NCBI GenBank assembly: GCA_040830765.1
Contig: JBFOMH010000003.1
Location: forward strand, 1-64,000
DNA length: 64,000 nucleotides
Reading direction: 5' to 3'
DNA from: Puniceicoccaceae bacterium
Lineage (GTDB): Bacteria; Verrucomicrobiota; Verrucomicrobiia; Opitutales; Oceanipulchritudinaceae
Position 1 is the stretch's first letter, and each line of letters starts with the position of its first letter. The notes beneath the pieces were generated by a model. The model saw nothing but the letters and a program-made list of their open reading frames with translations, made no database searches and had not been told where the DNA came from. A program made the position numbers and the translations under genes. This document shows, one piece after another, positions 34,576 to 50,128 of this stretch.

Positions 34576-35139
34576 TCAAATGCCGGGCCACAACCAGCCG
34601 AACACTCCCGCCGTCAGCAATGAATAAATCAATCCATCCAGCATCGACTTGAGGGTGGAGCTCCACTTTTTGGCATACCAGATTGAGTTCTGCGCCAAGG
34701 CGACGGCATAGCCGATGAAAGCCGTGCAACCAGCAATCTGGAATACCTTCATGTAATGGGCACCTTCCGGCAGCGCCGCTCCGGCAATGTAGGCCGCAAG
34801 GACGCTCACGACGAGGCAATAGATGAACCATTGGGCCAGGCTGGAACCCATGTTCCAGGGACCGTTCTTCATCACGGTCACCAGGGCCACGGGCCCTTCC
34901 TCCATCTTTTTCATGAACGCTTCATCCTTCATCGCATTGCCACTGCTGCAGTGCGGAATCATGTAATCCCCGGGGGGAATGTTGAACTTTCCCAGGGATT
35001 CACGGACATCGTCCTCGGAGGGGACTCCAGAAAAGTCGGACCGGTGATAGGTCAGGAACATGTGGATTGCCCAACTGGCAAAAAATACCAGCACCGTGGA
35101 CACAAGAATCGGTAACCAGAGAGAGAGTATGCTAACCAT
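34576..35139 (-). CDS. Conserved hypothetical membrane protein
   Basis: 187 aa with about 4 TM segments; fills the gap with an upstream GAGG-type RBS. Confidence 0.65.
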   Translation of the reverse strand: MVSILSLWLPILVSTVLVFFASWAIHMFLTYHRSDFSGVPSEDDVRESLGKFNIPPGDYMIPHCSSGNAMKDEAFMKKMEEGPVALVTVMKNGPWNMGSSLAQWFIYCLVVSVLAAYIAGAALPEGAHYMKVFQIAGCTAFIGYAVALAQNSIWYAKKWSSTLKSMLDGLIYSLLTAGVFGWLWPGI

Positions 35140-35290
35140 TTTTACCTCCTTAATAGTGAGTAGTGATTCGAGAAGGTCTCGACAATACCCAGCTCCGGTC
35201 CTGATTCAATGCAATTCCGCAAGCCCGGGTTTGGGATTGCCGGAGAGCTGGTCGGCACTATAGCATCGCACCACTCTCCACGGCTCGAGC

Positions 35291-37111
35291 ATGAAGCGAA
35301 CGCATCCATACGATCCCATTCAGTGGACCTCTCTGTTCCTCATTATCCTGCTTGTAGCCGTCCTCGGTGGTTGCCGTTCACCCGCTGATGTTGCTCCCCC
35401 GCCAAATCCCGGGCCAGCACCCGATATCCAGAGGGACAAGCGGCTGAGCGGAGATAATCCACAAGCCTCGAGGATTCTGGACTCAGCCGCCGAAGAAGCC
35501 GGGTCGCACCGCATCATCCTCCTTGAGTCGGGCGATGACGCCCTGCTGGCAAGGATCCACCTCATTCGTTCAGCCCGTGAATCCATCGACATCCAGACCT
35601 TCATCTGGGTCTATGACCGAAGCGGGCAATGGGTCTACCGGGAACTGCTGGAAGCCGCCCGTCGTGGTGTCAAGGTAAGGCTGCTCATTGACCAGTTCAT
35701 CAATCCCGAGCTACCGGCGGAGGAATACGCTGCCATCGCCACCGCCCATGAAAACCTGGAAATCCGGCTCTTCAGGCCCCTCACTGTAAATGCCATCAAC
35801 CGGCAATGGGACGTCACCCGACGCACCTTCACCCGCTTTGCGACGATGAACCACCGGATGCATCACAAGGTTTTCCTTGTTGACGGGCAGGCGGCCATTC
35901 TCGGCGGACGCAATTACCAGGACGCTTATTTCGACCGGGACTCCACGCTCAGTTTTCGGGATCGGGATGTCCTCGTAATGGGCCCCGCCTGCGACGACAT
36001 CAGCCGCTTTTTCGAACTCTTCTGGCAGCATGAGATGTCCTTCGAGGCAAGCCGGATGAAGGACCTCAAGAAAGCCCTTGAAACGGATGCGGCCCGTTTG
36101 CCGGATTCCCTCGAAGCCCCGCTGGACCCGATATTCCATGAGGACGACCTGCTGGCCAACCTCTATGATTTGAGAGCTATCCGGCCAACATTCAAGGAAT
36201 GGGTGGTCGGCAAAATCGAGTACATCTCCGACAAGCCGATCAAGGTCACTCAATACAGCAATCCGGGATTCCTCAATCCCTTCGCCAGCCTGAGGAATTT
36301 CATCGCCGAGGCAGACACTGAGGTTCTTATCCAGACTCCTTACTCGGTATTTGAGGACCGGACCTACAAGCGGTGGCGCAAGATTCGCAAGCAACGGCCG
36401 GAAGTCCGGGTCTGCCTCTCGACCAACAGTCTCTCATCCGCCGACCACGTCTATGTCGGCAGCATGGCCCTGAAACAGCGGCGGGCACAGATTGAGAGCC
36501 TCGGCATCGAGCTCTACCTTGCCAAGCCGGTTCCCGGGGACATCCGGGAGATGGTCCCTCGCTACGAAACATTGCTCCATGAGTCTGCCTCATCCCTTGA
36601 TCCGGACTGGGAAGAGGATCCGGAAATCATGCAACTGGACATTGAGGGTCCGCGCTTTTGCATCCATGCCAAGACGATGATCTTCGACCGCAAGATCAGT
36701 TTTATCGGCTCGCACAACTTTGATCCCCGTTCCATGAACCTGAACACGGAATGCGGTGTCGTCATCCGGGATGTCGCCTTTTCGCGGTATCTGGCGGAAT
36801 TTTACGACCGGGCGATCCATCCGGACAACAGTTGGGTCGTGGCCCCGAGGGATTTTGCGCCGATCGTCGGGGAAGTGAACAGTTTTATTGGCCTCGTCTC
36901 CACCAGCTTGCCCCTGTTCGACATCTGGCCGCTGGAGCATGTCTCCTGTTATGAAATGCTTGAAGGGGCGGAACCTCTCTCACCCTACGACGAGTCCTTC
37001 CACGAAAGCTATGAGGATGTTGGCCCCTTCCCCGGACTGGACCTTGGACTCGAACCCGTCAAGGTTCGACTCCTGAGGGCCATTGGGGATCCGGCAGTCC
37101 CCCTGATGTAG
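35291..37111 (+). CDS. Phospholipase D family lipoprotein (ClsC/YmdC-like)
   Basis: Lipobox LGG|C; two HKD motifs (HHKVFLVD, HAKTMIFD); GGRN; GSHNFDPRS. Confidence 0.9.
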   Translation: MKRTHPYDPIQWTSLFLIILLVAVLGGCRSPADVAPPPNPGPAPDIQRDKRLSGDNPQASRILDSAAEEAGSHRIILLESGDDALLARIHLIRSARESIDIQTFIWVYDRSGQWVYRELLEAARRGVKVRLLIDQFINPELPAEEYAAIATAHENLEIRLFRPLTVNAINRQWDVTRRTFTRFATMNHRMHHKVFLVDGQAAILGGRNYQDAYFDRDSTLSFRDRDVLVMGPACDDISRFFELFWQHEMSFEASRMKDLKKALETDAARLPDSLEAPLDPIFHEDDLLANLYDLRAIRPTFKEWVVGKIEYISDKPIKVTQYSNPGFLNPFASLRNFIAEADTEVLIQTPYSVFEDRTYKRWRKIRKQRPEVRVCLSTNSLSSADHVYVGSMALKQRRAQIESLGIELYLAKPVPGDIREMVPRYETLLHESASSLDPDWEEDPEIMQLDIEGPRFCIHAKTMIFDRKISFIGSHNFDPRSMNLNTECGVVIRDVAFSRYLAEFYDRAIHPDNSWVVAPRDFAPIVGEVNSFIGLVSTSLPLFDIWPLEHVSCYEMLEGAEPLSPYDESFHESYEDVGPFPGLDLGLEPVKVRLLRAIGDPAVPLM

Positions 37112-37135
37112 CCAATTTTGGCTACAGTTGGCAAT

Positions 37136-37795
37136 TCATTCCAACCCGTCCCGGGCAATGTTCTGGAAGTCCGTCTGGTTGACGAAGCCCTTCTGCATGG
37201 CGTAACGGATCAATTCGACCGTTGAGTGCAGTCCCAACTTGCGCATGATGCGCGCCTTGTGGTTCTGCACGCTGACCGGCCGCAGGTTCAGGCTCTCGGC
37301 AATCCGCTCGTTGGAGGCACCGGCCCCGAAGTAACGGAGCAGTTCCTGTTCCCGCTCGGTCAGGATTTTTGAAAACGCCAGGGGGTCCGTCTTCTGGATA
37401 AGCATGTTCTGCTGCACCGTGGCGGCATAATAGCAATTTCCTTCCCCAAGTTGCTGCACCGCTTTCTTCAGTTCCTCAATGGACTCGGTGTTCTTGTCAA
37501 CGAATCCAAACAGGCCGGTCATGAAGACCCGGTAGAGGGTGTACTCGTCGGTGCGTCCCGAGACACCGAGGATCCGCAGCTTGGGATTGACCTTGAGCAT
37601 GCGGTTGGCCAAGTCCAGACCGCTCCCGTCCGGCAGCTCAATATCGAGAATGGCGACATCCGGATTGTATTTTTCAAAGGCCTTCCACCCATCCTTGATA
37701 GTCTGGCAAGTGGCCACCAGTTCGAATTTTTCGGTCAGGCAATTACTGACCAGATCGATGCCCAGCTTTTGATCTTCAATGATGATGGTTTTCAT
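37136..37795 (-). CDS. NarL/LuxR-family response regulator
   Basis: IIEDQ, LDIELPDGSG, GFVDK; HTH LTEREQE..SNERIAESL..VQNHKARIMRKLG; ATGA overlap with kinase stop. Confidence 0.93.
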   Translation of the reverse strand: MKTIIIEDQKLGIDLVSNCLTEKFELVATCQTIKDGWKAFEKYNPDVAILDIELPDGSGLDLANRMLKVNPKLRILGVSGRTDEYTLYRVFMTGLFGFVDKNTESIEELKKAVQQLGEGNCYYAATVQQNMLIQKTDPLAFSKILTEREQELLRYFGAGASNERIAESLNLRPVSVQNHKARIMRKLGLHSTVELIRYAMQKGFVNQTDFQNIARDGLE

Positions 37796-40700
37796 GACCG
37801 TCTCCATTTCCGCAGTTCCAGTAGCCCTACGTGTATCTCGTCCATGTCACCGTTCTGGGCGGACACTTGTAAGTCACGACATACCTGCTGCATGGCGCGA
37901 TTATTCCGGATCATGGCGAGGGTAGTCAAGCGATGGGCGCATCGACGGAGATTTTCCCACTCGTAGCGGTCTCCGTAAAGGAGGCATTCGTCGATATGTT
38001 TGTAAATTTCCTCCATCACCTCATCGGCGGCTACCATATCGGTGGTGCTGGCGAGCTCCGGCTTGTAATTCTGGATATTGGCCAGACAGTAGGCCAGGCG
38101 GGCAGCTGTCAGTGGCTTGCTGATATAGCCATTCATGCCCGCTTCCTCGCTTTCGCGCTTTTTCTCCCCATCGGTATAGGCCGTTACGGCGACCAGGATA
38201 ACCTCGTCATCAGGATCCTTCTTGCGGTGGCGGCGGGCGATTTCCGGGCCGGTCAACCCGGGAAGGTCCCAATCCAGCAGGGCAAGGTAGTAGTCGTTCT
38301 TCTCCAGCTGTTCGAGGGCATCCCGGCCGTTCTCAGCCTCGTCGCAGGAACAACCAATGGTCTCAAAGAACTCCACCACCGAACGGCGGTTGTAGACCAG
38401 GTCATCCACGACGAGAATCTTTTTACCCTTCAACTGGGCCAGGACCGCCTCCTTGTCGAGCTCGGTGGCTCCCTCGACACGATCGAAGCGCCCCTTGAGG
38501 ACAAAGCGGCAACCGGAAGGTTGATTGTCTTCCAGCCGCAAGTGTCCCCCCATGGCATGGGCGATTTCCTGACAAATGGACAATCCCAGTCCCGTCCCGT
38601 GCTTCCCGCTTTCCACACCGCTTTCACCCCGGTAGAAGCGCTCAAAAATGAATTCGCGTTCGGACTCGTCAATGCCGATGCCCCAGTCGGCAACATACAG
38701 TTCAAGGTCGACTTCATGGTCGGTGATGTTGATGCAGGTGGCTCCAATCTCCACCCGGTCCGACTCCGCGTACTGGAGGGCATTAACCAGCAGGTTGCTC
38801 AAAATCTTGATCATCCAGTTCCGGTCTGTCCGGATGACGACATCAGCCAGTTCCGGGGAAATGACCGTGTTCAGGTTCACCATCTCATGCTGAAGGCTGA
38901 ACTGGTTCTGTTTCACCGAGCTCTCGATCAGGTCGTGGATGGAAACAGGTATGAAGGCCGTCGGGATGTTTTTCTGATCAATGGCCGAAAAGTCGAGGAT
39001 CTCACCCAGCATCCGGTCAACAATGACTCCGAATTCGGTCAGGTCCTTCAAGCGGGGATCATCTCCGGATTCCGGTGGATTCCTGGTCAGGGTCTCGGTA
39101 ATCATGAGAACCCCGTTCAAGGGATTGCGGATGTCATGCGACAAGCCGGCGAGGAAGTTAGTCCGAGCTGCGGTGGCGGCCTCCAATTCCCGTGTCTGTT
39201 TCTTGACCTCGCTTTGCAACCAGAGGTTGGTCCGCTTCAATTGCGCCGAACGCAGGGCGAACAAGCCCCAGAAAAAGAAGAGGGCCGCCACGACCATGAC
39301 TCCCTGGTAGATGGGATTCAAGTACCAGGGCGGGGCGATCCCGAATTGCACCAGCTTGGAGGAGGAAACATTTCCATTCGGGTGCATGGCCCGCAACTCC
39401 ACCGTGAAGTTGCCATGCCCGGCAAACTGCAGGGACGGATCCTGCAAATTGACGTTTCGCCACCGCTGCTCGTTGATGCGGTACTGGACGATGCTGGGAA
39501 TGTCCGGCTCGGAGAAATTCACCTGCAGGTCAATGAAGTGCATGCCGCTGGGAATGGTCCGGTCCTCGATGCGCTTGTCTTCCAGCAGCAGGGCAAACTC
39601 GACCCGGGGTGCCGCCGCTCGGGACAATTCCGGAACCGCATACCAACCGACACCATGCGCCCCGACGATGCCCAGCCGCTCACCCCCACCCATCAGGCCA
39701 ATTGCTTCCCCGGCCTGCTCCAGGAACGGAACGGTCATCATGATGTTGCCGGCGTCGGAATACATGCCGACGGCAAGGTTTCGCGTGGCTGGATCTTCAA
39801 AAAGGACATAGGTATCCTCGCCCGAGTTACTGAGTGACCTGACGGTCCATCCTGGTGCCAGGGGGAAGCGTTCCAGCGATTCACCCCTCCATCGATAGAC
39901 AACCGTCGGGGAGGCCAGCCAGACCGCATTCTCACCCGCCGCATGGGCAATGATGACGTCCTCCATCTTGTAGGGGAGCTCCACTGAGCGCCATCCGGAC
40001 CCTTCCCGGATTAACTGCAGAATCTGCTTGCCCCCGATGAGGGCGTAAAAGCCGGAATCCAATTCTCCAATCAGCTCAATCTGGCGCTCATCCTTGTGAA
40101 TCAGTTCGAGTTCGAATGTGTCGGAAACTGAGTAGATTCCCTCCACCCCAAGGGCAAAGCCCGTTGATTGGCCCCACTTGAAGCTGGATATCGGTTGGGT
40201 GAGCTCTCTTACCGACCAATCTTCTCCATTAAATTCTTCGTAAATATTAACTGCTCCCATCACTGGGAGGCCGTCCTTGTCAACATCCACCCAGCTCGCC
40301 GTCCGCAGGAGTTCACCTTTCTCATAACCATCATTATCCAACCGGATCCAACCCTCATCCAGAAAGAGAAAGCCTGCCTCTTCCCCAGCCAGAAAATGCC
40401 GGACACTGTCCCCTTCCCAAAGCTCCCCGGAAGGGAAAAACTTGGACTCCCTGCTGAAGTCAACCACCCCCACGCCCTTGTCACCAAGCATGGCGATCCG
40501 GGTTTTATCAAGGGCCCGGATCTTGAAAACATCGCCCAGATCCAGCTTTTCATCGCTGCTAACGCTTTCACTGATGCGTTCCAGTGACCGGTTCCATACC
40601 GCCACCCCGAGCGGGTACTCAGTAATGGCGATATAATCGCCAAGACCCGCTGAATTATTGATGCCCTTCTTGAAAAAGTCCCCGTAGTTGGAATTGATAA

Positions 40701-41406
40701 GAACCGGTTCATCGTTCTTCTTTCCCGACCAGTAATATACCCCGAAATTGGTCCCGAAGGTGTACTTCTCCCCGGTCCTTTCGAGCCAGGCGACCAGTTC
40801 TCCGTCCGTCATTTCAATGGGAAGGATAAGTTCCCGGCCTTCGGCCGTTATGCGCCAGATACCAGAACCTGACCCGACATACAAAAACGGATTTTCCGCA
40901 TCGGCATGGTAGACTACCGGCCGGGGATTAAAGGTCTCTTTCCAGTGCTGTCCGACTTGGAACGTATCTGGCTCGATCCATCCAAATCCCTCTGAAGCAA
41001 TATACCACAAACGGTCCAGGTACCACTCCAACGACCATACAAAACCGACTTCAAGGGTTGAGAATCCGACAAGTTTTCCCGATCTGTCGAAGCCGCCAAC
41101 ACCGGCGGAATCAGCAAACCAGAGTGTGTTTCCATTCGGTGAAACGGCGAGTGCGGTAACGCGCCCGGAGGGCCGTATTGTCTCCCACTGGTCACCGCTG
41201 AGCCGATACAATCCCTCCCCTGCGAGCCATATATCATCCGCGAACAGGCTGACATCATGATAGCTTGCCGGCGGCACCGATTCGAGCTTTTCGGCGAAGC
41301 GGTAGGCGGGACCCGTTAATGGATCCGCAATCAGGACGTTGATAAAATTTAATCCAACGAGGAATAGGAACTGTGGAAATATGGATGAAGACATTTTTTT
41401 AAACAT
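37792..41406 (-). CDS. Hybrid sensor histidine kinase (large propeller-like periplasmic sensor, Y_Y_Y-like, TM, HisKA, HATPase, REC, HPt-like)
   Basis: FLAGLSHDIRNPLN, NLLVNA, DWGIGI, GTGLGL, VVDD..LLDWDLP..SKP, C-terminal RCAHRL; start probably 41406 or 41394, not 41562. Confidence 0.92.
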   Translation of the reverse strand: MFKKMSSSIFPQFLFLVGLNFINVLIADPLTGPAYRFAEKLESVPPASYHDVSLFADDIWLAGEGLYRLSGDQWETIRPSGRVTALAVSPNGNTLWFADSAGVGGFDRSGKLVGFSTLEVGFVWSLEWYLDRLWYIASEGFGWIEPDTFQVGQHWKETFNPRPVVYHADAENPFLYVGSGSGIWRITAEGRELILPIEMTDGELVAWLERTGEKYTFGTNFGVYYWSGKKNDEPVLINSNYGDFFKKGINNSAGLGDYIAITEYPLGVAVWNRSLERISESVSSDEKLDLGDVFKIRALDKTRIAMLGDKGVGVVDFSRESKFFPSGELWEGDSVRHFLAGEEAGFLFLDEGWIRLDNDGYEKGELLRTASWVDVDKDGLPVMGAVNIYEEFNGEDWSVRELTQPISSFKWGQSTGFALGVEGIYSVSDTFELELIHKDERQIELIGELDSGFYALIGGKQILQLIREGSGWRSVELPYKMEDVIIAHAAGENAVWLASPTVVYRWRGESLERFPLAPGWTVRSLSNSGEDTYVLFEDPATRNLAVGMYSDAGNIMMTVPFLEQAGEAIGLMGGGERLGIVGAHGVGWYAVPELSRAAAPRVEFALLLEDKRIEDRTIPSGMHFIDLQVNFSEPDIPSIVQYRINEQRWRNVNLQDPSLQFAGHGNFTVELRAMHPNGNVSSSKLVQFGIAPPWYLNPIYQGVMVVAALFFFWGLFALRSAQLKRTNLWLQSEVKKQTRELEAATAARTNFLAGLSHDIRNPLNGVLMITETLTRNPPESGDDPRLKDLTEFGVIVDRMLGEILDFSAIDQKNIPTAFIPVSIHDLIESSVKQNQFSLQHEMVNLNTVISPELADVVIRTDRNWMIKILSNLLVNALQYAESDRVEIGATCINITDHEVDLELYVADWGIGIDESEREFIFERFYRGESGVESGKHGTGLGLSICQEIAHAMGGHLRLEDNQPSGCRFVLKGRFDRVEGATELDKEAVLAQLKGKKILVVDDLVYNRRSVVEFFETIGCSCDEAENGRDALEQLEKNDYYLALLDWDLPGLTGPEIARRHRKKDPDDEVILVAVTAYTDGEKKRESEEAGMNGYISKPLTAARLAYCLANIQNYKPELASTTDMVAADEVMEEIYKHIDECLLYGDRYEWENLRRCAHRLTTLAMIRNNRAMQQVCRDLQVSAQNGDMDEIHVGLLELRKWRRS

Positions 41407-41425
41407 ACTGTAAAAATGGAGCCCT

Positions 41426-41593
41426 ATGAAAAACATCAAACGCATCCTAATACTCGTTGTGGCTATCTGTTTAGCCTCAGTCGGGCTAAATGCACAAGCT
41501 GAAACCGTCAGTAAGAAGGTAATCAAGGATTTGGACTCCAAGAGTTCCGGTTCCATTCTCATGAGTATCTACTGTATCGTCGGCATCAAGTAG
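41426..41593 (+). CDS. Unlisted 55-aa small secreted peptide, candidate RiPP precursor
   Basis: Hand translation: MKNIKRILILVVAICLASVGLNAQA|ETVSKKVIKDLDSKSSGSILMSIYCIVGIK*; Sec-type signal with AxA site; GGAG 4 nt upstream; directly upstream of the YcaO-like gene. Confidence 0.65.
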   Translation: MKNIKRILILVVAICLASVGLNAQAETVSKKVIKDLDSKSSGSILMSIYCIVGIK

Positions 41594-41650
41594 CCCTTAG
41601 GAGTAACGCAACACTGAATACTAACCGTAACGTATAACAAAGGCCTAGAA

Positions 41651-42631
41651 ATGACCACCCTGTCACAGTCAGCAACGCTGCCCGTTCCCTATGATTTGAG
41701 CGCAGCACCCGAATGGTTCCTCAAGAAAGCACGCTTCGCCAAGCGGTTTTTCCTGAATCTTGCCCCCATCCGCTATGCGCTGGCTGCTGAAGAAGGGGGT
41801 CCTATCAGCCAGGTGGAATACGGCCAGGCGGAATACATGGGCCAGCTCTGGCAGCTGTGCCGGGCGACCTTGCAGGAGGATTTCCAGCACCCGATGGGGA
41901 AAAAGCTGGAGTTGTTCTCCTCCGCAGACGGCTCGGGCATGGGGCTGACACGGCTTGAGGCCCGCGCCAAGGCTATCTCCGAAGCCCTCGAACGCTGGGC
42001 CTACACGGAGACCAGTTCCGGACCGGACGCTGTTCTCTATGGATATCCGTATTCCATGAGTACCAAGGGCATGGCCGCCTTTCCCAGTGTTTTCCCGGGA
42101 ATGGCACGCCGCACCGCCATTTCAGAGGCTTTTGAATACTACTCGGTGGACGCGTGGTGGGGAGGCACTCTCAACCACTGGATAATCAATCGGGACGATT
42201 CAACTATCGTCTTCATCAACCAGCCTGAGTTCAAGGGACATATCGCCTTGGCTATCCGGCACCTCGACCTGAACGACTATGTCGCCGCTTACGGGATAGG
42301 ATCGGGTGCTACGGCTGAAGAAGCCGAACTCAAGGCACAACTGGAAGCCTGCCGCTCACAGACCATTCTCGAACGGCGTGATGCGACACCCCACCGTGTC
42401 CGTAACAAGCCCGTCCTGGAAATGGAACAACGCCTGCTCGAGTTCTCTTCGCGCGAAGGCTTTGCCATGGTCAAGGATCGTCTTGCCAGTCGCCCGTGGT
42501 TGCCGGAAATCAAGCCCAACGTCATCTTCGACGGACCGGTCAAGGGACCATGGAATAAGTACGCCCATGTCTGGCGCTACGCACTGGAGCCCTTCCCGAT
42601 TAAGTATCGCCAACGTCAGTTTGTTGCCTGA
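41651..42631 (+). CDS. Short YcaO-like protein
   Basis: GSGMG..EARAKAISEALERW, STKGMAA..ARRTAISEAFE, GIGSG..AELKAQLE resemble the three Glu-containing ATP/Mg motifs of YcaO. Confidence 0.7.
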   Translation: MTTLSQSATLPVPYDLSAAPEWFLKKARFAKRFFLNLAPIRYALAAEEGGPISQVEYGQAEYMGQLWQLCRATLQEDFQHPMGKKLELFSSADGSGMGLTRLEARAKAISEALERWAYTETSSGPDAVLYGYPYSMSTKGMAAFPSVFPGMARRTAISEAFEYYSVDAWWGGTLNHWIINRDDSTIVFINQPEFKGHIALAIRHLDLNDYVAAYGIGSGATAEEAELKAQLEACRSQTILERRDATPHRVRNKPVLEMEQRLLEFSSREGFAMVKDRLASRPWLPEIKPNVIFDGPVKGPWNKYAHVWRYALEPFPIKYRQRQFVA

Positions 42632-42698
42632 CCAGGCACCGCTGCTGCCAATCTGCTGTCAATCTCCACAAACCGTCTTCATCCTAACCACAGGCACA

Positions 42699-43193
42699 AT
42701 GAGCACGCATGAAAGCACTTTCAACTTCCCGTTCATCTCCAACCTGATTTCTGACAAGGCTGGTGAGCGAACGAGCCAATTCCGTAAACAGGCTGTCTCC
42801 ATGAAAGAAAAAGCCCTCTGCCTTGACGACGACCCCCTTTCGCTTCGTCTGGTTGAGCACCTGTTGAAGGAGCGCTACCAGGTTGTTTCCTGTCCCACCA
42901 TTGATGCCGCAGTCAAGGCGGTACGGCGGCACAAGTTCTGCCTCTTCCTGTGCGACTATCATCTCGGGGAGCATTTCACTGGCGCTCGCGCCAACGAAAT
43001 CCTCACCCGGAAATACCGTTTCAATCCAATCCACCGGGTTCTGATCACTTCCTACCCGTCGCCGGAAATTGAAAAGGAGACCCTGGCCAGCGGATTTGAA
43101 AGAGTATTCGCAAAACCGCTACGTCGAGAGTTCCAATCCTATTGCCTGAGCCTTTACCGTCCTCCCCTCAAGAGTGGCATGGCCGTAGGCTGA
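42699..43193 (+). CDS. Single-domain response regulator receiver protein
   Basis: CLDDD, FLCDYHL, LITS, FAKPL; start at 42699 or 42801. Confidence 0.8.
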   Translation: MSTHESTFNFPFISNLISDKAGERTSQFRKQAVSMKEKALCLDDDPLSLRLVEHLLKERYQVVSCPTIDAAVKAVRRHKFCLFLCDYHLGEHFTGARANEILTRKYRFNPIHRVLITSYPSPEIEKETLASGFERVFAKPLRREFQSYCLSLYRPPLKSGMAVG

Positions 43194-43409
43194 ATCCAGC
43201 AAGCGAAGCCCCCGTCATGATTGCCATTACCACCATAGGCCTTCTGGCCAATGGAACCCACCCCGTCCCCCGGGATGGCCACCCGAGACCTCGTACGGTC
43301 CGGAGGGGTTGCCGACCCCTGCCCAAGCCCGCCACTGTCCGCGTCAGGAAGGATCGGGGAGAACGCTAAAATTATTGCCAGCGGGATAAGGAAACGGCTT
43401 CCTTGAAGC

Positions 43410-45599
43410 ATGACTCTCGCTGCCAGACTGACGGCCTTGTTGATTATCGTCGCCGTCACGCCCGACCTCCCGGGCAAACCCAAGCCGGTTCCGGCTACCG
43501 GGCATGGAGTGCCACCGCCTCCGGTTGAGCTGAGCGGATCAAACGACACCCTGCTGCAGGCCAACCTGGCACCTGAGAACCAATATTCGATCGGCAGTCC
43601 CTCCGATGAAGAGCAGGCCATTGTCGAGATGATTAACCGGGCCCGTGCGGATGCCGACGCGGAAGCGCTACGTCTCGCCAATACCACCGACCAGGATGTC
43701 CTGGATGCGATCTGCTTTTTTGGTGTCAACCTGCCGGAGATGATCAACCAGTTCGCTGCCCTCCCCCAGTCCCTTCCCCCGCTTTCCATCCATCCTGAAT
43801 TAACGGATATGGCCCGCCTTCATTCCCAGGACATGTTTGACAATGTTTTCCAGGGCCACACCAGTTCCGGCACTCCCCCCGCTCCCTACTCCGCCGGGGA
43901 CACACTCTCAGACCGTGCTGCCGAGTTCACCTATGCCTACACGACGCTCGGAGAGAATGTTTATGCCTTCGCCAGATCTGATGCCTATGGTCATGCCAGT
44001 TTTGAAATCGACTGGGGATTCGATGCCTTTGGGATGCAAAGCCCACCGGAACACCGGGAAACGATTCATGATGCCCGATTTAAGGAAATTGGAATTGGCA
44101 TTATCAAGGGAACTAATTCGACCGAGTCCCTGACCGTTGGTCCCTTGCTGATGACCCAGGTATTCGGCGAGCCCCAGTCGTCAGGTCCCTTTATTACGGG
44201 CGTCGCCTATTACGACCTCAATGGAAATGGATTTTATGACGCCGGAGAGGGACTTGGCGGATTGACCGTTTCCACCGAGGAAACGACGGCCTGGGCACTG
44301 ACCGCAAACAGCGGGGGTTACTCCATTCCGGTCCCGTCGGATGGCGCCTACACGGTTACATTTTCCGGGTTAGGCATCACGCCCCAGACTACGGTCGTCA
44401 ACGTGGCGTCCGGGGAAAACATCAAGCAGGACTTTGCCATTGGATATGTCCCACCCGTCCTCTCCGGCTCATCCACGCCCTTTACCGGGATCGACAACGA
44501 ATATGCCATATCTCCAACGCCAGGAGCTACTGGCTACTGGTTCAAGGTATATACTGAAAATGTCACTACATGGCTGGAGGGGGCCGAGAACGGTAACACG
44601 GATGTCACGATCCTCAACAGCCCTGAATACGTCGTCATCCAGGGAGAGGTGGTCCGCAACGGGGCCAATGCCTTTCACCTTGCCCATCCGGGAGGCGGAA
44701 GCGACCAGGTCATCACGCTTCAGCATACCATATTTCCAACCGCCAGCAGTGAACTTCGTTTTGGCAGCAAGCTGCAGTATGCAACCTCCTCGCAAACGGC
44801 CAATGTGGACGTATCCACCAACGAAGGAATATCATGGACCAATATTTACCGCCAGACAGGATCCAACTCCAGCGGGGAAGCCGGTTTTGTCTACCGTTTT
44901 GTCCCTCTGGGAAGTTATGCCGGCCAACCGCTGCGGATTCGCTTCCGCTACTCCGTTGAAGGATGCAACCCCTCCATCTACGATGGTATCACCACAAACA
45001 TTGGCTGGATTATCGACGACATTACGGTGGCCAACGCGACCCGCTTGCTCCCGGAAAGCGAATTCATCCTGGGGTCCCCAATAGCGACTTTCAATCCCGC
45101 CACCGCCGGGGAATTCTACCTCACTGCCCGTCCGGTCAACAATTTCAAGGGCTTCCCCTATGGTCCGCTCCTCAAGGTAACATCCGGACCTGCCGGGCCG
45201 CAGGACTTGTGGCGGCTGGATAACTTCCTCCAGGCCGACCTCAATGACTCAGCCAAGGAATCGACAATATGGGGCGACCTCGCTGATCCCGACAAGGATG
45301 GATTGGGCAACTTACTTGAGTACGCCCTGGCGGGTAATCCCAACCTCGCCGATGCCCACATGATTATGCCGCAGTTCGGCCGGTCGGGAGGTGTCCTGAC
45401 GCTCAGTTACACGATGCAACGCTCTGAATTGAGCTACCGCGTCCTGACGAATACGGATCTCCAGGACCAGCCATGGACATCAACCGGGGTCAGCCAGACG
45501 CCGGATCCCGACACCGCGAGCGAAGGCACCCCCATAGAGGCTTCCGTGACCCTCGGCGTTGGTCGCCGTTTCCTGCAGCTTGAGGTGGTTGAGCCCTGA
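43410..45599 (+). CDS. Secreted multidomain CAP (SCP) protein
   Basis: INRARAD, ARLHSQDM, GEN, HRETI, EIGIG; SdrD-like YYDLNGNGFYDAGEG; C-terminal DPDKDG..EYAL tail. Confidence 0.8.
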   Translation: MTLAARLTALLIIVAVTPDLPGKPKPVPATGHGVPPPPVELSGSNDTLLQANLAPENQYSIGSPSDEEQAIVEMINRARADADAEALRLANTTDQDVLDAICFFGVNLPEMINQFAALPQSLPPLSIHPELTDMARLHSQDMFDNVFQGHTSSGTPPAPYSAGDTLSDRAAEFTYAYTTLGENVYAFARSDAYGHASFEIDWGFDAFGMQSPPEHRETIHDARFKEIGIGIIKGTNSTESLTVGPLLMTQVFGEPQSSGPFITGVAYYDLNGNGFYDAGEGLGGLTVSTEETTAWALTANSGGYSIPVPSDGAYTVTFSGLGITPQTTVVNVASGENIKQDFAIGYVPPVLSGSSTPFTGIDNEYAISPTPGATGYWFKVYTENVTTWLEGAENGNTDVTILNSPEYVVIQGEVVRNGANAFHLAHPGGGSDQVITLQHTIFPTASSELRFGSKLQYATSSQTANVDVSTNEGISWTNIYRQTGSNSSGEAGFVYRFVPLGSYAGQPLRIRFRYSVEGCNPSIYDGITTNIGWIIDDITVANATRLLPESEFILGSPIATFNPATAGEFYLTARPVNNFKGFPYGPLLKVTSGPAGPQDLWRLDNFLQADLNDSAKESTIWGDLADPDKDGLGNLLEYALAGNPNLADAHMIMPQFGRSGGVLTLSYTMQRSELSYRVLTNTDLQDQPWTSTGVSQTPDPDTASEGTPIEASVTLGVGRRFLQLEVVEP

Positions 45600-45606
45600 G
45601 GTTTCC

Positions 45607-46767
45607 CTAATTGGGGCTGGCTACAAAACGGATGAGCAGGGCATCATGCTCAAGGGGCAGGAGGATTTGCTCCAGGACGATGGCCCGGCCATCGGAAATC
45701 CGGGTATCCAGGTTGAGAACAGAACCGGCCATTTGCCACGTTTCGCCATCGTGGCTGTAGTGGATATTTAATTCAACTTCCGCACCGAGGTTCCTCCAAT
45801 ATACCAGGGAATATCCATCTTCAGGATCGATCGCCTGGGAGATAGAGGGCCGGCTGCCGGCATCGCTGGGGTCGGATGCGAACAGGTATTCCATCAATTG
45901 CGACCAGCCATCCCTGTCTGTGTCAGCGTTTTCCACTGGCTCCAAGGCATATCCCCCGCTCCAGTCAGCAAAGGAGACAACGGGAACGGTGGCCGGGTTC
46001 ATCACACCAACCGCATCCAAGTCAAATCCGGACGTAATGATCGTTGGATACGGATCATAAATCGCGTAGCCCTCGCAATCCATCCGGGTGCCATCCCCCG
46101 GTATGTCAACCAGGCGGACATACCGGATCGCCTCCATGTTTAAATACGGAAAATTCTCCTCCACCGATTCAGCATAGGCTTCACTGAACCGGTCATAGCC
46201 CTGCAGCAGGGCAGCATGGACCGCGGCGAGCTCGGCCAGGTCAAACGGGGTTCCAAATCCCCCCGCGTGCTTCCCGGCAAATCCCTCGATGTATTCCGGT
46301 TGTAATACCCCGAATGCACCGACGGGCTCCGCAGTCAGGGAGTAATTGGGAAACCGGACAAAATGCAGGCCATCTGAGGAAACCTCCACATAGGCCAATT
46401 CGAGAAATGTCCCGCTGAAGCTGTTTTCAAACACGGCAAAGTCGTAGCCCCCACCATCCCGGATTGAGGGCGTGAATTCCAGGACTGCCGAGCCGCCACG
46501 ACCCAATACGACGACGTCATTCCCGTTCAGAAAAGCCGGACCGAGACCTGCTTCCGGCGTTTTCCACTCCTCAGCCACTTCCTCGCCGTACGTAACCTCG
46601 ATCCCTGTGGCCCAACCCTTGATGACCGGGTCTTGATTCCAGATAGCGACTGTTCCCGGTTCCCCGGCGGCCGGACTGAAGGGAAACACCGGAGCTTCAT
46701 ATCCCAGTGCCAGCGTTGGCGGAAATCCGGTAATGGCCAGCAGCCCAAACTGAAGAAGGTGCCTCAT
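45607..46767 (-). CDS. Cell-surface protein of a type often found beside TonB receptors
   Basis: Signal peptide; [46 protein letters not shown] tail. Confidence 0.65.
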
Positions 46768-46773
46768 ATTGCC

Positions 46774-48801
46774 TTATATGGAGTAATTAAGCCGGATGAA
46801 GGCCTGACGTCCCGGGCCCGGGTAAAAGCCTCCGCTATAGGCGGAAACCGCGTGGTTTCGATCAAACAGGTTGTGAATACCCCCCGACACAACAAATTGG
46901 GGGTGGGGATTCCAGCGGAACATCAGATCCACGATCCCATAGGCGGGAATCCTGCGGAAGGCGTTCGCGAAGTCATTCCCCTGAACCTGTGATGATAAGT
47001 AGCGACCGTGAAGTTGTATTCGCAGGGAATCAACCGGCTTGAACCAGCCGGTGAGCCCACCCTCGTACCGGGGAACAAGTGGCAGCCGCTTTCCTACAGA
47101 CTCGTCCTCGAATTCAGTCCGCACCACGGTGGCATGCATGGAAATGCCGTAGCGGTCTTTTCGATACGCTGCATTCAGCTCCAAACCGCTCCGGACTGTG
47201 TCACCAATATTGATGTTCAGGCGCTCTGACTCGGAAAAGCTGATCTCATCATCCATGCGCAAGTGGAAGACGGTCGCCGAAAGGTGCCAGTTGTCCTCAA
47301 AGCGCTTCAACCCGGCCTCGAAATTATGGCCCGTTTCCGGCTCCAAATTCACGTTGAGGGGATCCCTCAGGGGAAATCCCTGGTAAGAAGCCGTTTCATC
47401 AAGCGCCGGATACCGGTAGACACGGTCCCAGCCGGCCCACAGATTGAGCCCTTGGGACAACTTCTTTACCAGTGAAACCTCAGCCGACCAGCCGGACTTT
47501 GTAATTGTGCCGTCATATGAGGCCTCCTCATCGATATCCGGATTCTCCTGGTATTCGGGATTCGGGAATGTGCCTCGGTTCGTCTCGATAAACGGGTTCA
47601 GCTGATTCTCCTCGTAGCGGACATAGTCATTCGCTGAACGCGCTGTCTCCAGTCGCAACCCTCCCGACAATTCCAGGGTGGAGCTCAACTCCCTTGAAGA
47701 AAACAGGTATCCCCCCACGGTCAGGCGCCCGATATCCGCAAAGGAGCGTAGAATGTCCCCCGCTTCATTCGTATAGTCCCGATGCCGCACCTCATCTCCG
47801 GCAATGTCCAGACCCGTCATCAAGAACCCTTTACCGTCGCCCAGACGGACCCGCGGGGATAGCGTCAACTGGCGTTGGCGGTTGTCCCCAAATCTCCCTT
47901 CCAGGTTGGACTGGCGCTGGCGCTGCAAAACTCCACCGTTCATTTGCCAGCTGCCCCAATCTTCCTGGCCTTCCCCCATCAGGGTCGCCTGCCAGTTCTC
48001 TGCCTCAACCCGCTCCTTGCCTCCGTTGTTGGACTGGCGCGGATTTTCCCGGAACTGCCCATAGGTCAACGGCCCGGGAAATTGGATCGCTGAGTCTCCA
48101 GCCGTAAACCGTCCCCTCCACCTGGGACCACTGGTTCCACCCACATTCCAGGATAGGTGGCCGGTTCGGCTCTCAATATCCGAGTTTTCCCGGTAGCCTT
48201 TGGATTCCATCCAGTCGAGCCCACCCCGCAGGCCCACGGTCCCCAGCGCCTGCTGCAGGGATGCCGATGCCCGGCGTGTGGCATCACTTCCAAATTCTCC
48301 CTCAAGGTTTCCTGCCAATTCGCCCCCAGGTTCCCGGGTGCGCAACTTCACCACTCCGGATACGGCATGGTTCCCATACAAGACCGTCTGCCCCCCACGC
48401 AGGACTTCCACCGTCTCCAACTCCCCCAGCGAAAGGCCCAGCCAGTTAATTCCCCCCATGTCCGGCGGATTGTACACCTGCCCGTCCACCAGTACCAATA
48501 CCCGCAAGCCGCTGTTGTCCCCAAAACCCCTCAGGGCCAGCTGCCCCTCCGCTCCTGTCCCGGTGAATTGGCGAAACCGTACCCCAGCCGCCTGCTCCAA
48601 TACCTGCGGCACGCTCCACGCCCCGCTCGTCTCCAAATCCACCCGCTCCAGACGCACCACGCTCGCCGGTATCTCCATCCCCAGCCCGTCAAAATGCCAC
48701 GCTTCCACCACGTACGGACCCAGCTCCACCACCGGCTCCGCTTCCACCCTCAGAACCGCCAGTAGCAACAGGATTATCCACCTCTGTCCATTTCCCTTCA
48801 C
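46774..48801 (-). CDS. TonB-dependent receptor
   Basis: GGAGG RBS + GTG at 48801; plug LRGFG..LVLVDG..EVLRGG..LYG..GVV; LEPETG; NLFDR..PGRQ..NYSI terminal strand. Confidence 0.9.
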   Translation of the reverse strand: MKGNGQRWIILLLLAVLRVEAEPVVELGPYVVEAWHFDGLGMEIPASVVRLERVDLETSGAWSVPQVLEQAAGVRFRQFTGTGAEGQLALRGFGDNSGLRVLVLVDGQVYNPPDMGGINWLGLSLGELETVEVLRGGQTVLYGNHAVSGVVKLRTREPGGELAGNLEGEFGSDATRRASASLQQALGTVGLRGGLDWMESKGYRENSDIESRTGHLSWNVGGTSGPRWRGRFTAGDSAIQFPGPLTYGQFRENPRQSNNGGKERVEAENWQATLMGEGQEDWGSWQMNGGVLQRQRQSNLEGRFGDNRQRQLTLSPRVRLGDGKGFLMTGLDIAGDEVRHRDYTNEAGDILRSFADIGRLTVGGYLFSSRELSSTLELSGGLRLETARSANDYVRYEENQLNPFIETNRGTFPNPEYQENPDIDEEASYDGTITKSGWSAEVSLVKKLSQGLNLWAGWDRVYRYPALDETASYQGFPLRDPLNVNLEPETGHNFEAGLKRFEDNWHLSATVFHLRMDDEISFSESERLNINIGDTVRSGLELNAAYRKDRYGISMHATVVRTEFEDESVGKRLPLVPRYEGGLTGWFKPVDSLRIQLHGRYLSSQVQGNDFANAFRRIPAYGIVDLMFRWNPHPQFVVSGGIHNLFDRNHAVSAYSGGFYPGPGRQAFIRLNYSI

Positions 48802-48856
48802 GTGACCTCCATACCCCTCATAATGGCACGGGAATGTCAATAAGGAAGGGAGTGTG

Positions 48857-50128
48857 CTATTGGGCACTGGCTCGGATGAACCGGGGGGCACCTGGCTGGA
48901 GGGCATTGGCATCCCTGACGGTGAGGTTCCATGTCCCGTCGCCGTTGGGGGAATTCCCTTCGACAATGACCTCGGCGGGATCGCTGGAGCTCCATGAACC
49001 GTCAAAGGACAGGGAGACACTGGTCCATCCGGCAAGGTCGCTACCCACTTCTACCGTATATTGGAGATCGGGGTCCTCACGGGTAGAGAAGACAGCCTGG
49101 AGGTGGCGCGCTCCGGTCAGCTCCGTCGTCCCGGAAAGCAGGGGTACGGGGTCGGTTGGATCGGAAGGGTCGAGGACAAAGGCGTATTCGGTAAAGTTGT
49201 CCAATCCGTCGCCATCGAAGTCGACAGCCGGACCAGCGACCGCCCAGTCGGTTGTCCCGAAGGCGGAGTTCATCCAGGAGACATACCCCGCCGTGGCGTC
49301 AACGGAGAAAGCAGAAATGGAGGCATCCAGGGAAGCGGCATAGTTCCCGATGTAGGAAAAGCCACTCAAGTTGCGCAGGTCCTCGAAGGCAGGCCGGCTG
49401 TCAATATCCACTGTTCCAATGAACCAGTTGATTCCAATCAGGGTAAGGACACCGCCGACGTCCCGCAGAAGAGGGGCTCCGGAATCTCCAATTTGCAGAT
49501 AAGCTTCGAAAGACACAAAATCCGGATCATCCGGCAGGTCCTGGTAGGCCAGTACAGCCTGATCGACAGTGCCAGAGTCACTGAAGTCCTCAATCCAATC
49601 ATTGAGGATATTCTTCCCCAGCGCCATATCGGTCACCAAAGGGAAGCTGGAAGGGGAACGGCCGACCATGAATGCCTCCTCGCCCGCATGCGAGGAGCTG
49701 AAGAAGCCAGCCGTATTGGCGATGGCCTCATCGGTGAAGGACATGGGAGTGTATCCGGCTGGGACTGGATCGGCCAATACACCCAGCCAGAGATCCGAGT
49801 CTTCAACCCTTTGCCCGGCAATGAGCTGCCTGCTCACAGATTCACCTGAGGGGTCGTTCGATTGATGGAATGTCATCGTACTCCCGATGGCCGGAAAGAA
49901 GTGATTGGCGGAAAGGATAACGTTTCCGCTGACCAGGGTACCCCAGCGCCCGGATTCGTTGAGGCCAATTGCCGAGAGGTCATAGGCAGCCGCGACAAAA
50001 GCCGGGTCGTTGCTGAATCGATCGTTACTGCCGCTGCTAAAGCCTTCAATGACAATGGCAGCCTCTCCCTGAAGACTCCCGCCGAGAAGGGCTCCGAGAA
50101 GCAGCAAAAATGGATTCCGACCAGGCAT
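48857..50128 (-). CDS. Secreted trypsin-like serine protease-fold protein
   Basis: Signal peptide; ILSANHF, SDLWLG, GDSGAPL, LIGIN; DFDGDG..EYAF tail. Confidence 0.7.
   Translation of the reverse strand: MPGRNPFLLLLGALLGGSLQGEAAIVIEGFSSGSNDRFSNDPAFVAAAYDLSAIGLNESGRWGTLVSGNVILSANHFFPAIGSTMTFHQSNDPSGESVSRQLIAGQRVEDSDLWLGVLADPVPAGYTPMSFTDEAIANTAGFFSSSHAGEEAFMVGRSPSSFPLVTDMALGKNILNDWIEDFSDSGTVDQAVLAYQDLPDDPDFVSFEAYLQIGDSGAPLLRDVGGVLTLIGINWFIGTVDIDSRPAFEDLRNLSGFSYIGNYAASLDASISAFSVDATAGYVSWMNSAFGTTDWAVAGPAVDFDGDGLDNFTEYAFVLDPSDPTDPVPLLSGTTELTGARHLQAVFSTREDPDLQYTVEVGSDLAGWTSVSLSFDGSWSSSDPAEVIVEGNSPNGDGTWNLTVRDANALQPGAPRFIRASAQ

Follow-up and report, generated by a model that had tools for sequence, protein, structure and literature searches.

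A conserved YcaO–peptide–kinase cassette in Opitutales as a candidate peptide quorum-sensing circuit

Layout and conservation of the locus

The window analyzed here, a 64,000-nucleotide stretch of contig JBFOMH010000003.1 from a Puniceicoccaceae bacterium, contains a divergent locus in which a hybrid kinase and a NarL/LuxR regulator on the minus strand lie head-to-head with a 55-aa peptide, a compact YcaO and a receiver on the plus strand:

37136..37807, minus strand: NarL/LuxR-type response regulator, receiver plus GerE helix-turn-helix (Pfam Response_reg and GerE)
37792..41406, minus strand: hybrid sensor kinase (start at 41394 or 41406) with HisKA, HATPase, receiver and Hpt-like C-terminus
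39322..41325, minus strand: periplasmic sensor region of the kinase, 668 aa, Bacteroides HTCS-like (AF2 and Foldseek)
41338..41357, unstranded: 20-bp dyad, candidate regulator operator, in the kinase signal-peptide codons (column conservation)
41426..41593, plus strand: 55-aa precursor peptide with a hydrophobic, family-specific leader and a tail with Cys50 (leader model, conservation)
41651..42631, plus strand: compact stand-alone YcaO, 326 aa, without E1/RRE partner (fold search)
42699..43193, plus strand: single-domain receiver, 164 aa (conserved Met start; domain from about residue 35)

All five open reading frames of the head-to-head arrangement described in an earlier note on this DNA are present, and those of the regulator and kinase overlap, by 16 nt if the regulator starts at 37807 or by an ATGA if it starts at Met5 (37795). 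The kinase runs from a signal peptide through a double β-propeller plus Y_Y_Y-like sensor, a transmembrane helix, HisKA, HATPase and a receiver to an Hpt-like domain, whose histidine could be identified, in agreement with the HPt of the earlier note. Reading the kinase as a 1256-aa ORF was rejected: that start is too early, and the peptide gene would be overlapped.

How widely is this arrangement kept? A neighborhood census of the best 80 of 262 related loci, counting only loci with enough flank, found the peptide gene at 74 of 76, the divergent kinase at 66 of 69 and the NarL/LuxR regulator at 42 of 47, YcaO being the gene after the peptide in all loci. The kinase was also found at 20/20 loci in a sample of the order and at 8/8 held-out loci, 6/8 of which matched the peptide model. 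The neighborhood check that the earlier note had proposed for YcaO homologues therefore came out in its favor, upstream peptide and divergent kinase being nearly always there; the stand-alone receiver, present in the window, is limited among homologous loci to the window's own clade, so that a relay to two regulators holds in that clade only. Peptide and kinase starts are separated by 17–23 nt in this clade and mostly by <170 nt elsewhere. The same genome carries a second cassette (31% identical), and cassette loci occur in isolate genomes of Horticoccus (L048) and Oleiharenicola (L075). Partial forms also exist: L039 keeps peptide and YcaO while the kinase is absent, and L143 keeps kinase and regulator while peptide and YcaO are absent. 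Clustering of flanking ORFs placed the peptide and variable ORFs beside ycaO, and found no recurring transporter, protease, immunity, metal, dehydrogenase or TfuA-like genes around the unit. An arrangement kept across the order is more than chance: peptide, maturase, kinase and regulator are clustered, as in agr/ComQXPA-type peptide quorum sensing.

Enzyme, precursor peptide and sensor

That the enzyme is YcaO-like, as the earlier note had it, is upheld by fold: at E ≤ 0.001, Foldseek gave 40 matches, every one of those listed being a YcaO, and structure comparison gave Z scores of 17.1 to McbD and 16.1 to LynD, with further YcaO proteins at 15.5, 13.9 and 12.1 and the next, unrelated, fold at 6.5. 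Pfam YcaO (PF02624) scores 23.8 bits, below its gathering cut-off of 25.7, and is matched by 50/52 homologues at E ≤ 0.05 (best 3.8e-11); a YcaO profile run against PDB sequences gave one match, at a not meaningful E of 0.59. The acidic ATP/Mg motifs are intact, with S110, E111, E114, R115, E159 and E162 invariant in 101/101 homologues and E232 in 100/101, and we take the invariant acidic residues to correspond to the published YcaO ATP/Mg-binding residues. Position 163 is Tyr in the window and Arg in 91/101 homologues, positions 139/163 being Lys/Tyr in the window's clade and Asn/Arg in most others. In McbD and LynD the C-terminus reaches the active site (PMC6395948); the structure alignment extends to the C-termini of both, and a C-terminal length fixed in 97/101 homologues is what would be expected if the same held here. 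Fold, ATP/Mg residues and C-terminal alignment are common to McbD, LynD/TruD and the stand-alone bottromycin D proteins (PMC6395948, PMC4603692), whereas the cassette enzyme is about 300 aa, shows 13–14% identity, and has no E1/RRE partner or dehydrogenase, no extra gene cluster for such canonical TOMM partners (E1-like C protein/RRE, dehydrogenase) recurring at the loci. Unlike these azoline-forming YcaOs, it has an aromatic C-terminus (FFW in 69/101, W in 81/101) in place of the canonical TOMM Pro-x-Pro tail, and its presumed target residues number one or two.

Across the family, the peptides combine a leader specific to it with a tail that varies and contains Cys, or in some members Thr/Ser. 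Run against 74,242 genome segments, the leader model returned only the two cassette peptides at E < 0.1, and the peptide model had 0 matches on the opposite strand. Among the 72 aligned peptides, the leader Gly is kept in 71, Ala at +5 in 71 and Asp at +9 in 58. Cys is present at 69/75 loci, the first at a near-constant distance from the leader Gly; two Cys stand 2–4 residues apart in 33/72, 0–18 residues follow the last Cys, and Pro-Cys interchanges with Pro-Thr/Pro-Ser. Each core offers one or two Cys, compared with the Cys/Ser/Thr-rich cores of canonical TOMM. Some peptides lack Cys (L032, L119 and L191, the repeats of L119 included), and 10 loci encode a second, Cys-less peptide with the same leader. 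Tandem core repeats occur in L036, L048, L063, L098 and L188, with identical cores in L048, L098 and L188. Taken together, the Cys/Thr/Ser tails and the tandem repeats of some members point to azoline formation and release of a short core. Secretion via a signal peptide, as claimed earlier, fits the window's peptide (KD 3.58, 15 uncharged residues and an A-x-A site on motif inspection) but not all homologues: a (-3,-1) peptidase site is found in 66/72 and none nearby in 6/72, and in eight peptides of the short type no signal-like h-region is present, the uncharged run being 5–8 residues in 7/8. The peptide matched no Pfam family and, among the 72 members, no consistent NCBIfam family; Atlas matches to HEAT repeats, below 0.9, were dismissed.

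The sensor region of about 670 aa is modeled as all-β (AF2 pLDDT 92.6), and its top Foldseek matches are BT4673, BT4663 and BT3049; Reg_prop is found in 35/50 sensor homologues and Y_Y_Y in 18/50, the window's own copy matching neither. By its model, the sensor is a Bacteroides-HTCS-like double β-propeller, a family whose solved members include a heparin/heparan-sulphate sensor and which also occurs without peptide or YcaO. The Bacteroides hybrid two-component sensors BT4663, BT4673 and BT3049 share the Reg_prop double propeller, Y_Y_Y, HisKA, HATPase and receiver with the cassette kinase; they differ in carrying a fused AraC output, for which Pfam gave no match here, in place of an Hpt with a separate NarL regulator, and in being linked to a glycan-utilization locus rather than adjoining a peptide locus. 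The Hpt histidine is kept in 67/71 cassette kinases (L078 counted as cassette) and in 2/19 orphan relatives.

Candidate operator, transcripts and co-variation

Every cassette regulator whose alignment covers the phospho-accepting Asp retains it. Upstream of the peptide gene, a NarL-type dyad at -56/-78/-100 from the peptide start occurs at 58/71 loci, a count of best sites falling in three windows that cover 18% of positions. Its shape, TAC-N10-GTA, has the form of the NarL 7-2-7 site (PMC4549865). The window has a variant dyad whose center lies at about -78 relative to the peptide's ATG, the position occupied by the main class of dyads in the family. Across 10 loci, 12/20 of its columns are invariant, compared with 3/34 in the adjoining kinase codons, and in L013 this variant is a perfect palindrome; in the window's clade the variant dyad goes together with a variant recognition helix in the regulator. 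The promoter motif scores 12.0 against 6.7–7.0 for shuffles; since the ycaO coding control (14.8) is inflated by coding conservation, support for the motif consists of the shuffles and the positional clustering. The dyad is probably the regulator's operator, and its placement suggests that the regulator activates the peptide operon. A search of the window's own genome with the clade dyad was unconvincing (sites at ≤19.7, beside sugar genes, versus 34 for the training site), and a sigma-70 scan gave one promoter against 3.3 expected, with none at the divergent junction.

RNA-library contigs from four runs in two studies cover the peptide–ycaO region, one spanning 41498–43264 and two beginning at 41436, and summed depth peaks in bins lying between 41239 and 42339; these contigs carry no strand, level or start information. 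Do peptide and sensor co-vary? With the other genes controlled, peptide-core and sensor distances gave a partial r of 0.018 (p 0.30; 53 loci, coarse whole-domain distances), and in the window's clade the tail is 76–80% identical where the sensor is 42–43% identical. Leader distance correlates with sensor (partial r 0.25) and YcaO (0.23) in Mantel-type comparisons whose kin are not independent. Sensor hypervariability was dropped as a pherotype sign, orphans being alike (at core 0.65, sensor 0.30 in orphans and 0.38 in cassettes).

A possible signaling circuit and its alternatives

We consider it fairly probable that the cassette is an autoinducing-peptide circuit resembling ComQXPA and agr. 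The cytoplasmic YcaO would bind the precursor through its conserved leader and, driven by ATP, cyclodehydrate the tail Cys (Thr/Ser elsewhere) to an azoline. The peptide would then be exported, probably by Sec in the window's lineage, and housekeeping proteases would cut it down to a short core, which might bind the periplasmic double β-propeller of the divergent hybrid kinase, the weakest step of the scheme. By established phosphorelay logic, phosphate would pass from His to Asp to the Hpt His, residues that are all present, and from there to the NarL/LuxR regulator; in the window's clade the additional receiver could serve as a sink or branch. The regulator, acting on the -56/-78/-100 dyads, would switch on peptide–ycaO and close a positive loop. 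Autoinduction calls for such a feedback arm, which the likely operator ahead of the peptide gene would supply; a peptide that is output only would predict an operator there just as well. Against the circuit speak the missing co-variation of peptide core and sensor, the equally fast sensor divergence of orphan kinases, the heparin/heparan-sulphate sensor among the solved relatives, the occurrence of the sensor family without peptide or YcaO, the partial loci L039 and L143, the Cys-less peptides and the short-type peptides without an h-region.

Several other readings have to be weighed. Chance neighbors or a spurious small ORF might be suspected from the sub-threshold Pfam score and the lack of a peptide family, but the neighborhood census refutes this idea, and the conservation counts, the empty opposite strand and the second cassette make its probability negligible. 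A lesser but real possibility is that the circuit, including sensor binding, relay and feedback, is as proposed and the chemistry differs, YcaO producing an amidine, a macrocycle, a (thio)lactone or an ATP-dependent tail cleavage instead of an azoline. Stand-alone YcaOs of both kinds are known, ItfB making an amidine (PMC10352776) and MusD cleaving peptides (PMC10885120), and the aromatic C-terminus, the Cys-less L119 repeats and the Lys/Tyr at 139/163 are compatible with such chemistry; the Cys/Thr/Ser interchange and the variable length past the last Cys, on the other hand, favor local X-Cys cyclodehydration over C-terminal ring closure, and the TfuA of thioamidation is absent from the flanking clusters.

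It is unlikely, in our judgment, that the peptide is instead a regulated effector, with the kinase sensing glycan, envelope or metal stress and YcaO yielding a peptide, periplasmic or secreted, whose role is metal chelation, as in bufferins, or action against competitors. Bufferins/oxazolins are copper-binding products of Sec-signal precursors with Cys motifs, whose signal peptide may also act as the recognition sequence (PMC12452194), and the paired Cys, a carbohydrate-sensing fold and the absent peptide–sensor co-variation agree with an effector, while operator and gene order fit equally. Cores that are short, very variable, often single-Cys and Thr/Ser-substitutable would nevertheless make poor metal ligands, immunity, transport or metal genes do not recur, and a phosphorelay kinase of 1,250 aa that stays head-to-head with an output of two genes order-wide seems more typical of autoinducer loci. 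Decidedly improbable is a peptide that stays in the membrane as an uncleaved helix and tunes its own kinase there or in the periplasm, with YcaO modification as the switch, after the manner of the small membrane modulators MgrB and SafA. Leader conservation beyond signal-peptide needs, the leader–sensor correlation, the six peptides without a nearby cleavage site and the Cys-less second peptides speak for it; identical tandem cores suit released copies, the short-type peptides could hardly span a membrane, and the leaders mostly carry a site that a peptidase could use.

How does the favored autoinducer circuit compare with known systems? Bacillus ComQXPA likewise combines a maturase, a variable peptide, a membrane kinase and a NarL/LuxR regulator (ComP and ComA) without dedicated exporter; the cassette differs in having a YcaO rather than a prenyltransferase, Cys/Thr/Ser rather than Trp, a diderm host, a divergent layout and a double β-propeller hybrid kinase with Hpt. 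Staphylococcal and clostridial agr (AgrBDCA) shares with the cassette a Cys-centered peptide, an amphipathic or hydrophobic leader, divergent transcription and regulator sites, here putative, upstream of the peptide operon, whereas the cassette has no AgrB, an ATP-dependent YcaO, a NarL-type instead of a LytTR regulator and a sensor unrelated to AgrC. Bufferins/oxazolins are Sec-signal Cys precursors modified before export in Gram-negatives, a route that the cassette peptides may share; they depend on an MNIO enzyme with a DUF2063/RRE partner for copper chelation, compared with a lone YcaO here, and the term 'two-component' is absent from the paper describing them (PMC12452194).

Signaling in which membrane kinases respond to modified peptides is textbook knowledge for Gram-positive bacteria, and the literature searched yielded neither a YcaO-matured signal nor a peptide-binding HTCS-type propeller. 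Whatever the function, a partner-free YcaO of roughly 300 aa with many natural substrates is an enzyme subfamily that is new and could be of use to peptide engineers. We regard as evenly balanced the broader proposal of an undescribed peptide quorum sensing throughout Opitutales, diderm members of the PVC group, in which minimal YcaOs would make azoline autoinducers, a glycan-type HTCS propeller would have been repurposed as peptide receptor, a NarL-type regulator would close the loop, and paralogous cassettes, tandem cores and Cys-less decoys may provide several channels per genome. Since just four genes supply the predicted ligand, enzyme, receptor and operator, and isolates carry them, communication among Opitutales is directly testable.

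Cassette anatomy and conservation

All five open reading frames that the earlier note assigned to a peptide signalling system lie where it placed them, and a series of secreted-looking proteins follows.

37136-37807, minus strand: receiver-GerE regulator
37792 (stop) to 41394 or 41406 (start), minus strand: hybrid kinase
41426-41593, plus strand: peptide, 55 aa
41651-42631, plus strand: YcaO-like protein, 326 aa
42699-43193, plus strand: single receiver, 164 aa
within 43410-50128: CAP-domain protein, 729 aa
within 43410-50128: two proteins without a Pfam family, 386 and 423 aa
within 43410-50128: TonB-dependent receptor

In the window, which relatives with names assign to Opitutales, the kinase stop overlaps the regulator start, and about 20-30 nt separate the peptide and kinase starts. 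Away from the window, the secreted-looking series is not conserved next to the cassette. Contigs from RNA libraries cover the operon, coverage that alone is no proof of expression; near-identical contigs to 35000-46000 are also present in RNA libraries that carry the label mollusc metagenome (X1, X3), a hint of a host-associated habitat.

The conserved-neighbourhood check proposed in the earlier note was run on the best 80 of 262 loci in species genomes. It found the peptide in 74 of 76 loci with at least 300 nt upstream, a divergent kinase in 66/69 with 1 kb or more of flank and the regulator in 42/47 with 6 kb or more, figures that are counts rather than tests because kin among the loci are not independent. 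The misses were L061, where a divergent peptide is visible, L072, L029, L039, L012 and L053. An order sample of 20 loci (19 of 25 non-own matches, extended, plus the own paralogue; four duplicates, one match at a contig end and one partial left out) gave the kinase in 20/20, the regulator in 17/19 and a peptide-model match in 12/20; the other eight carry variant peptides of 39-45 aa (seven) or a Cys-less repeat peptide (one). A later held-out set (12 loci minus three duplicates and one truncated) had the kinase in 8/8 and the peptide model in 6/8; the two that the model missed have short candidate ORFs. Regulator and kinase are convergent in 34 of 42 loci and co-oriented in seven, mainly in the window's clade; in some loci the regulator lies beyond ycaO. 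Of the plus-strand run that the earlier note described, the stand-alone receiver is limited to the window's clade. In the flanks of the best 80 of 262, every other ORF cluster is seen in 10 loci at most, so exporter, protease, dehydrogenase and TfuA are not part of the unit.

The YcaO family numbers 495 members at 90% clustering and 354 at 50%, and is present in 25/201 genomes of the order sample and 22/301 of the phylum sample, all 22 from Opitutales. One contig with a Bdellovibrionales label carries a YcaO of the family (L072:7974-8885) and no recognisable peptide or family kinase beside it, a case of transfer or mis-binning. The window's own genome holds a second cassette (G000:C28, about 43637-49368; L002, L003) with a 61-aa peptide, a YcaO 31% identical to the window's, a kinase, a convergent regulator and a general-type dyad; two YcaO copies also occur in genomes G135 and G290.

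The YcaO enzyme and its candidate substrate

The Pfam YcaO match is confined to residues 95-119 and falls below threshold (23.8 bits vs a cut-off of 25.7). The YcaO assignment was nevertheless correct: with an AF2 model (52-sequence alignment, pLDDT 88.6), Foldseek matched YcaO structures, and VIA gave McbD at Z 17.1 (255 aligned, rmsd 3.7), LynD at 16.1, archaeal YcaOs at 15.5 and 13.9 and E. coli YcaO at 12.1, against at most 6.5 for unrelated folds. Among 101 distinct homologues, S110, E111, E114, R115, G140, E159 and E162 never vary and E232 is retained in 100; these residues match the published ATP/Mg motifs. The C-terminus is aromatic, not Pro, and sits at a fixed distance from the last conserved motif (22 in 88/101, 19 in 9/101). 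The model's alignment runs to its last residue, onto the C-termini of McbD and LynD, whose terminal carboxylate enters the active site (PMC6395948).

The iterated peptide model converged on 106 matches, none on the opposite strand. In the own genome, translated in six frames (74,242 segments), its only matches at E<0.1 were the two cassette peptides; the leader is therefore specific to this family rather than typical of signal peptides in general. Of 96 distinct peptides, 72 were selected by hand and aligned, a set without Cys-less second peptides, repeats or partials. In their leaders Gly is present in 71, as is Ala at +5, and 58 have Asp at +9. The first Cys falls mostly about 29-32 residues beyond the leader Gly, and the last is preceded by Pro in 35 or Tyr in 11 and followed by 0-18 residues. 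Cys-bearing peptides occur in 69/75 loci; of the other six, two run off contig ends, one shows the second peptide alone, one is masked, one is frameshifted, and L032 is genuinely Cys-less.

By hhalign, short-type peptides align with long-type ones at a probability of 77% (E 1.9e-5); they lack an h-region. The secreted peptide of the earlier note fits the window's copy and not every homologue. The ends of the short type, Pro-Cys or Pro-Thr, match the long type in position, and some other peptides have Cys-x-Pro-Thr/Ser in place of the long type's Cys-x-x-Pro-Cys. This Cys/Thr/Ser interchange is a cyclodehydration-substrate pattern, from which we infer that the tail residue would be such a substrate rather than part of a disulphide. 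Tandem identical cores (L036, L048 from a Horticoccus isolate, L063, L098 and L188, the last a single-contig genome) suggest that short cores are released from the precursor.

Ten loci (L014, L015, L016, L017, L018, L022, L024, L026, L027, L028) carry, in tandem with the Cys-bearing gene, a Cys-less second peptide that shares its leader, possibly a decoy, inhibitor or second signal. The precursors at L119:8056-8289 and L191 are Cys-less with another type of leader, and L119 has four tandem Pro/Gly-rich repeats; this subclade may therefore use other chemistry.

Sensor kinase and candidate operator

The 668-aa periplasmic part of the kinase is predicted to be all-beta (pLDDT 92.6), with Bacteroides HTCS sensors as its top structural and sequence matches; Reg_prop occurs in 35/50 kinase homologues and Y_Y_Y in 18/50. 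Cassette kinases retain the HisKA His (71/71), the receiver Asp (68/71) and the Hpt His (67/71; three truncated), bearing out at residue level the HPt relay element that had been proposed; the Hpt His is present in only 2/19 orphan relatives. A quick tree of 90 kinases places 16 orphans in a single supported clade, separate from the cassette kinases. Fast divergence of sensor relative to core was ruled out as cassette-specific, as orphan sensors behave likewise.

The own genome's orphan, a related propeller hybrid kinase (L111, G000:C13:110036-113902), lacks peptide, YcaO and Hpt His and adjoins a divergent 1105-aa secreted-looking protein. At L143:7040-9730, a cassette-type kinase and regulator flank an 896-aa ORF where peptide and ycaO would be; by eye it looks like a TonB-dependent receptor, and the kinase groups among cassette kinases in the same tree. 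Kinase ORFs are split or short in the L130, L051, L081 and L012 assemblies (frameshift or decay), and the L051 peptide is frameshifted too.

Upstream of peptide genes, TAC-N10-GTA is the most frequent gapped word (34/81). When a palindromic 18-mer was fitted to the 71 upstream regions, it scored 12.0 and shuffles reached 6.7-7.0; coding DNA of ycaO, a control confounded by coding conservation, scored 14.8. The best sites concentrate around three positions, -56, -78 and -100 relative to the ATG, which are spaced by two helical turns. Of 71 best sites, 58 are no more than 4 nt away from one of these centres; the windows so defined, set with the data already in view, take up 18% of positions. In held-out loci, 5/6 best sites are also near the centres. 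The dyad has the shape of a NarL 7-2-7 site (PMC4549865). The window's clade lacks this motif and has another dyad at 41338-41357 (centre about -78), inside kinase signal codons, with 12/20 columns invariant vs 3/34 adjacent (10 loci). The encoded amino acids change and the symmetry is kept, perfectly in L013. The regulator's recognition helix is distinct there as well, and the two variants count as one evolutionary event.

A search for a wider regulon gave nothing convincing. In the own genome, the general dyad has its highest-scoring match (20.6 bits; L153:2053-2760, G000:C5 near 239269) where an orphan NarL/LuxR regulator gene begins, possibly a downstream cascade.

A proposed autoinducing loop and its alternatives

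The analysis shows genes, folds, catalytic residues, conservation and motif, and infers substrate, chemistry, export, ligand binding and the sign of regulation. We consider it fairly probable that this anatomy is that of an autoinducing loop. YcaO would modify the precursor peptide, the core would be exported and sensed by the kinase propeller, and the phosphorelay would activate the regulator, which would drive peptide-ycaO and close the loop. The absence of co-variation between peptide core and sensor (partial r 0.018, p 0.30, 53 loci) counts against this loop; core distance correlates weakly with YcaO (partial r 0.15), and leader distance correlates with both YcaO (0.23) and sensor (0.25). 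The peptide might instead be a regulated effector of the bufferin type (PMC12452194), which we regard as rather unlikely, or a membrane-bound modulator like MgrB, which is more doubtful still.

We drew on PMC10352776, PMC7298704, PMC10885120, PMC8120280, PMC6395948, PMC4549865, PMC12452194 and PMC4603692, the last of which mentions neither Verrucomicrobia nor Opitutus. Opitutales go unmentioned among the first 20 of 164 matches to one literature search. Searches of open full texts turned up no paper on the cassette. Known peptide quorum sensing (agr and ComP/ComA) follows the same logic as the cassette; however, the cassette's maturase, receptor fold and host envelope are unlike those of each known peptide quorum-sensing family.
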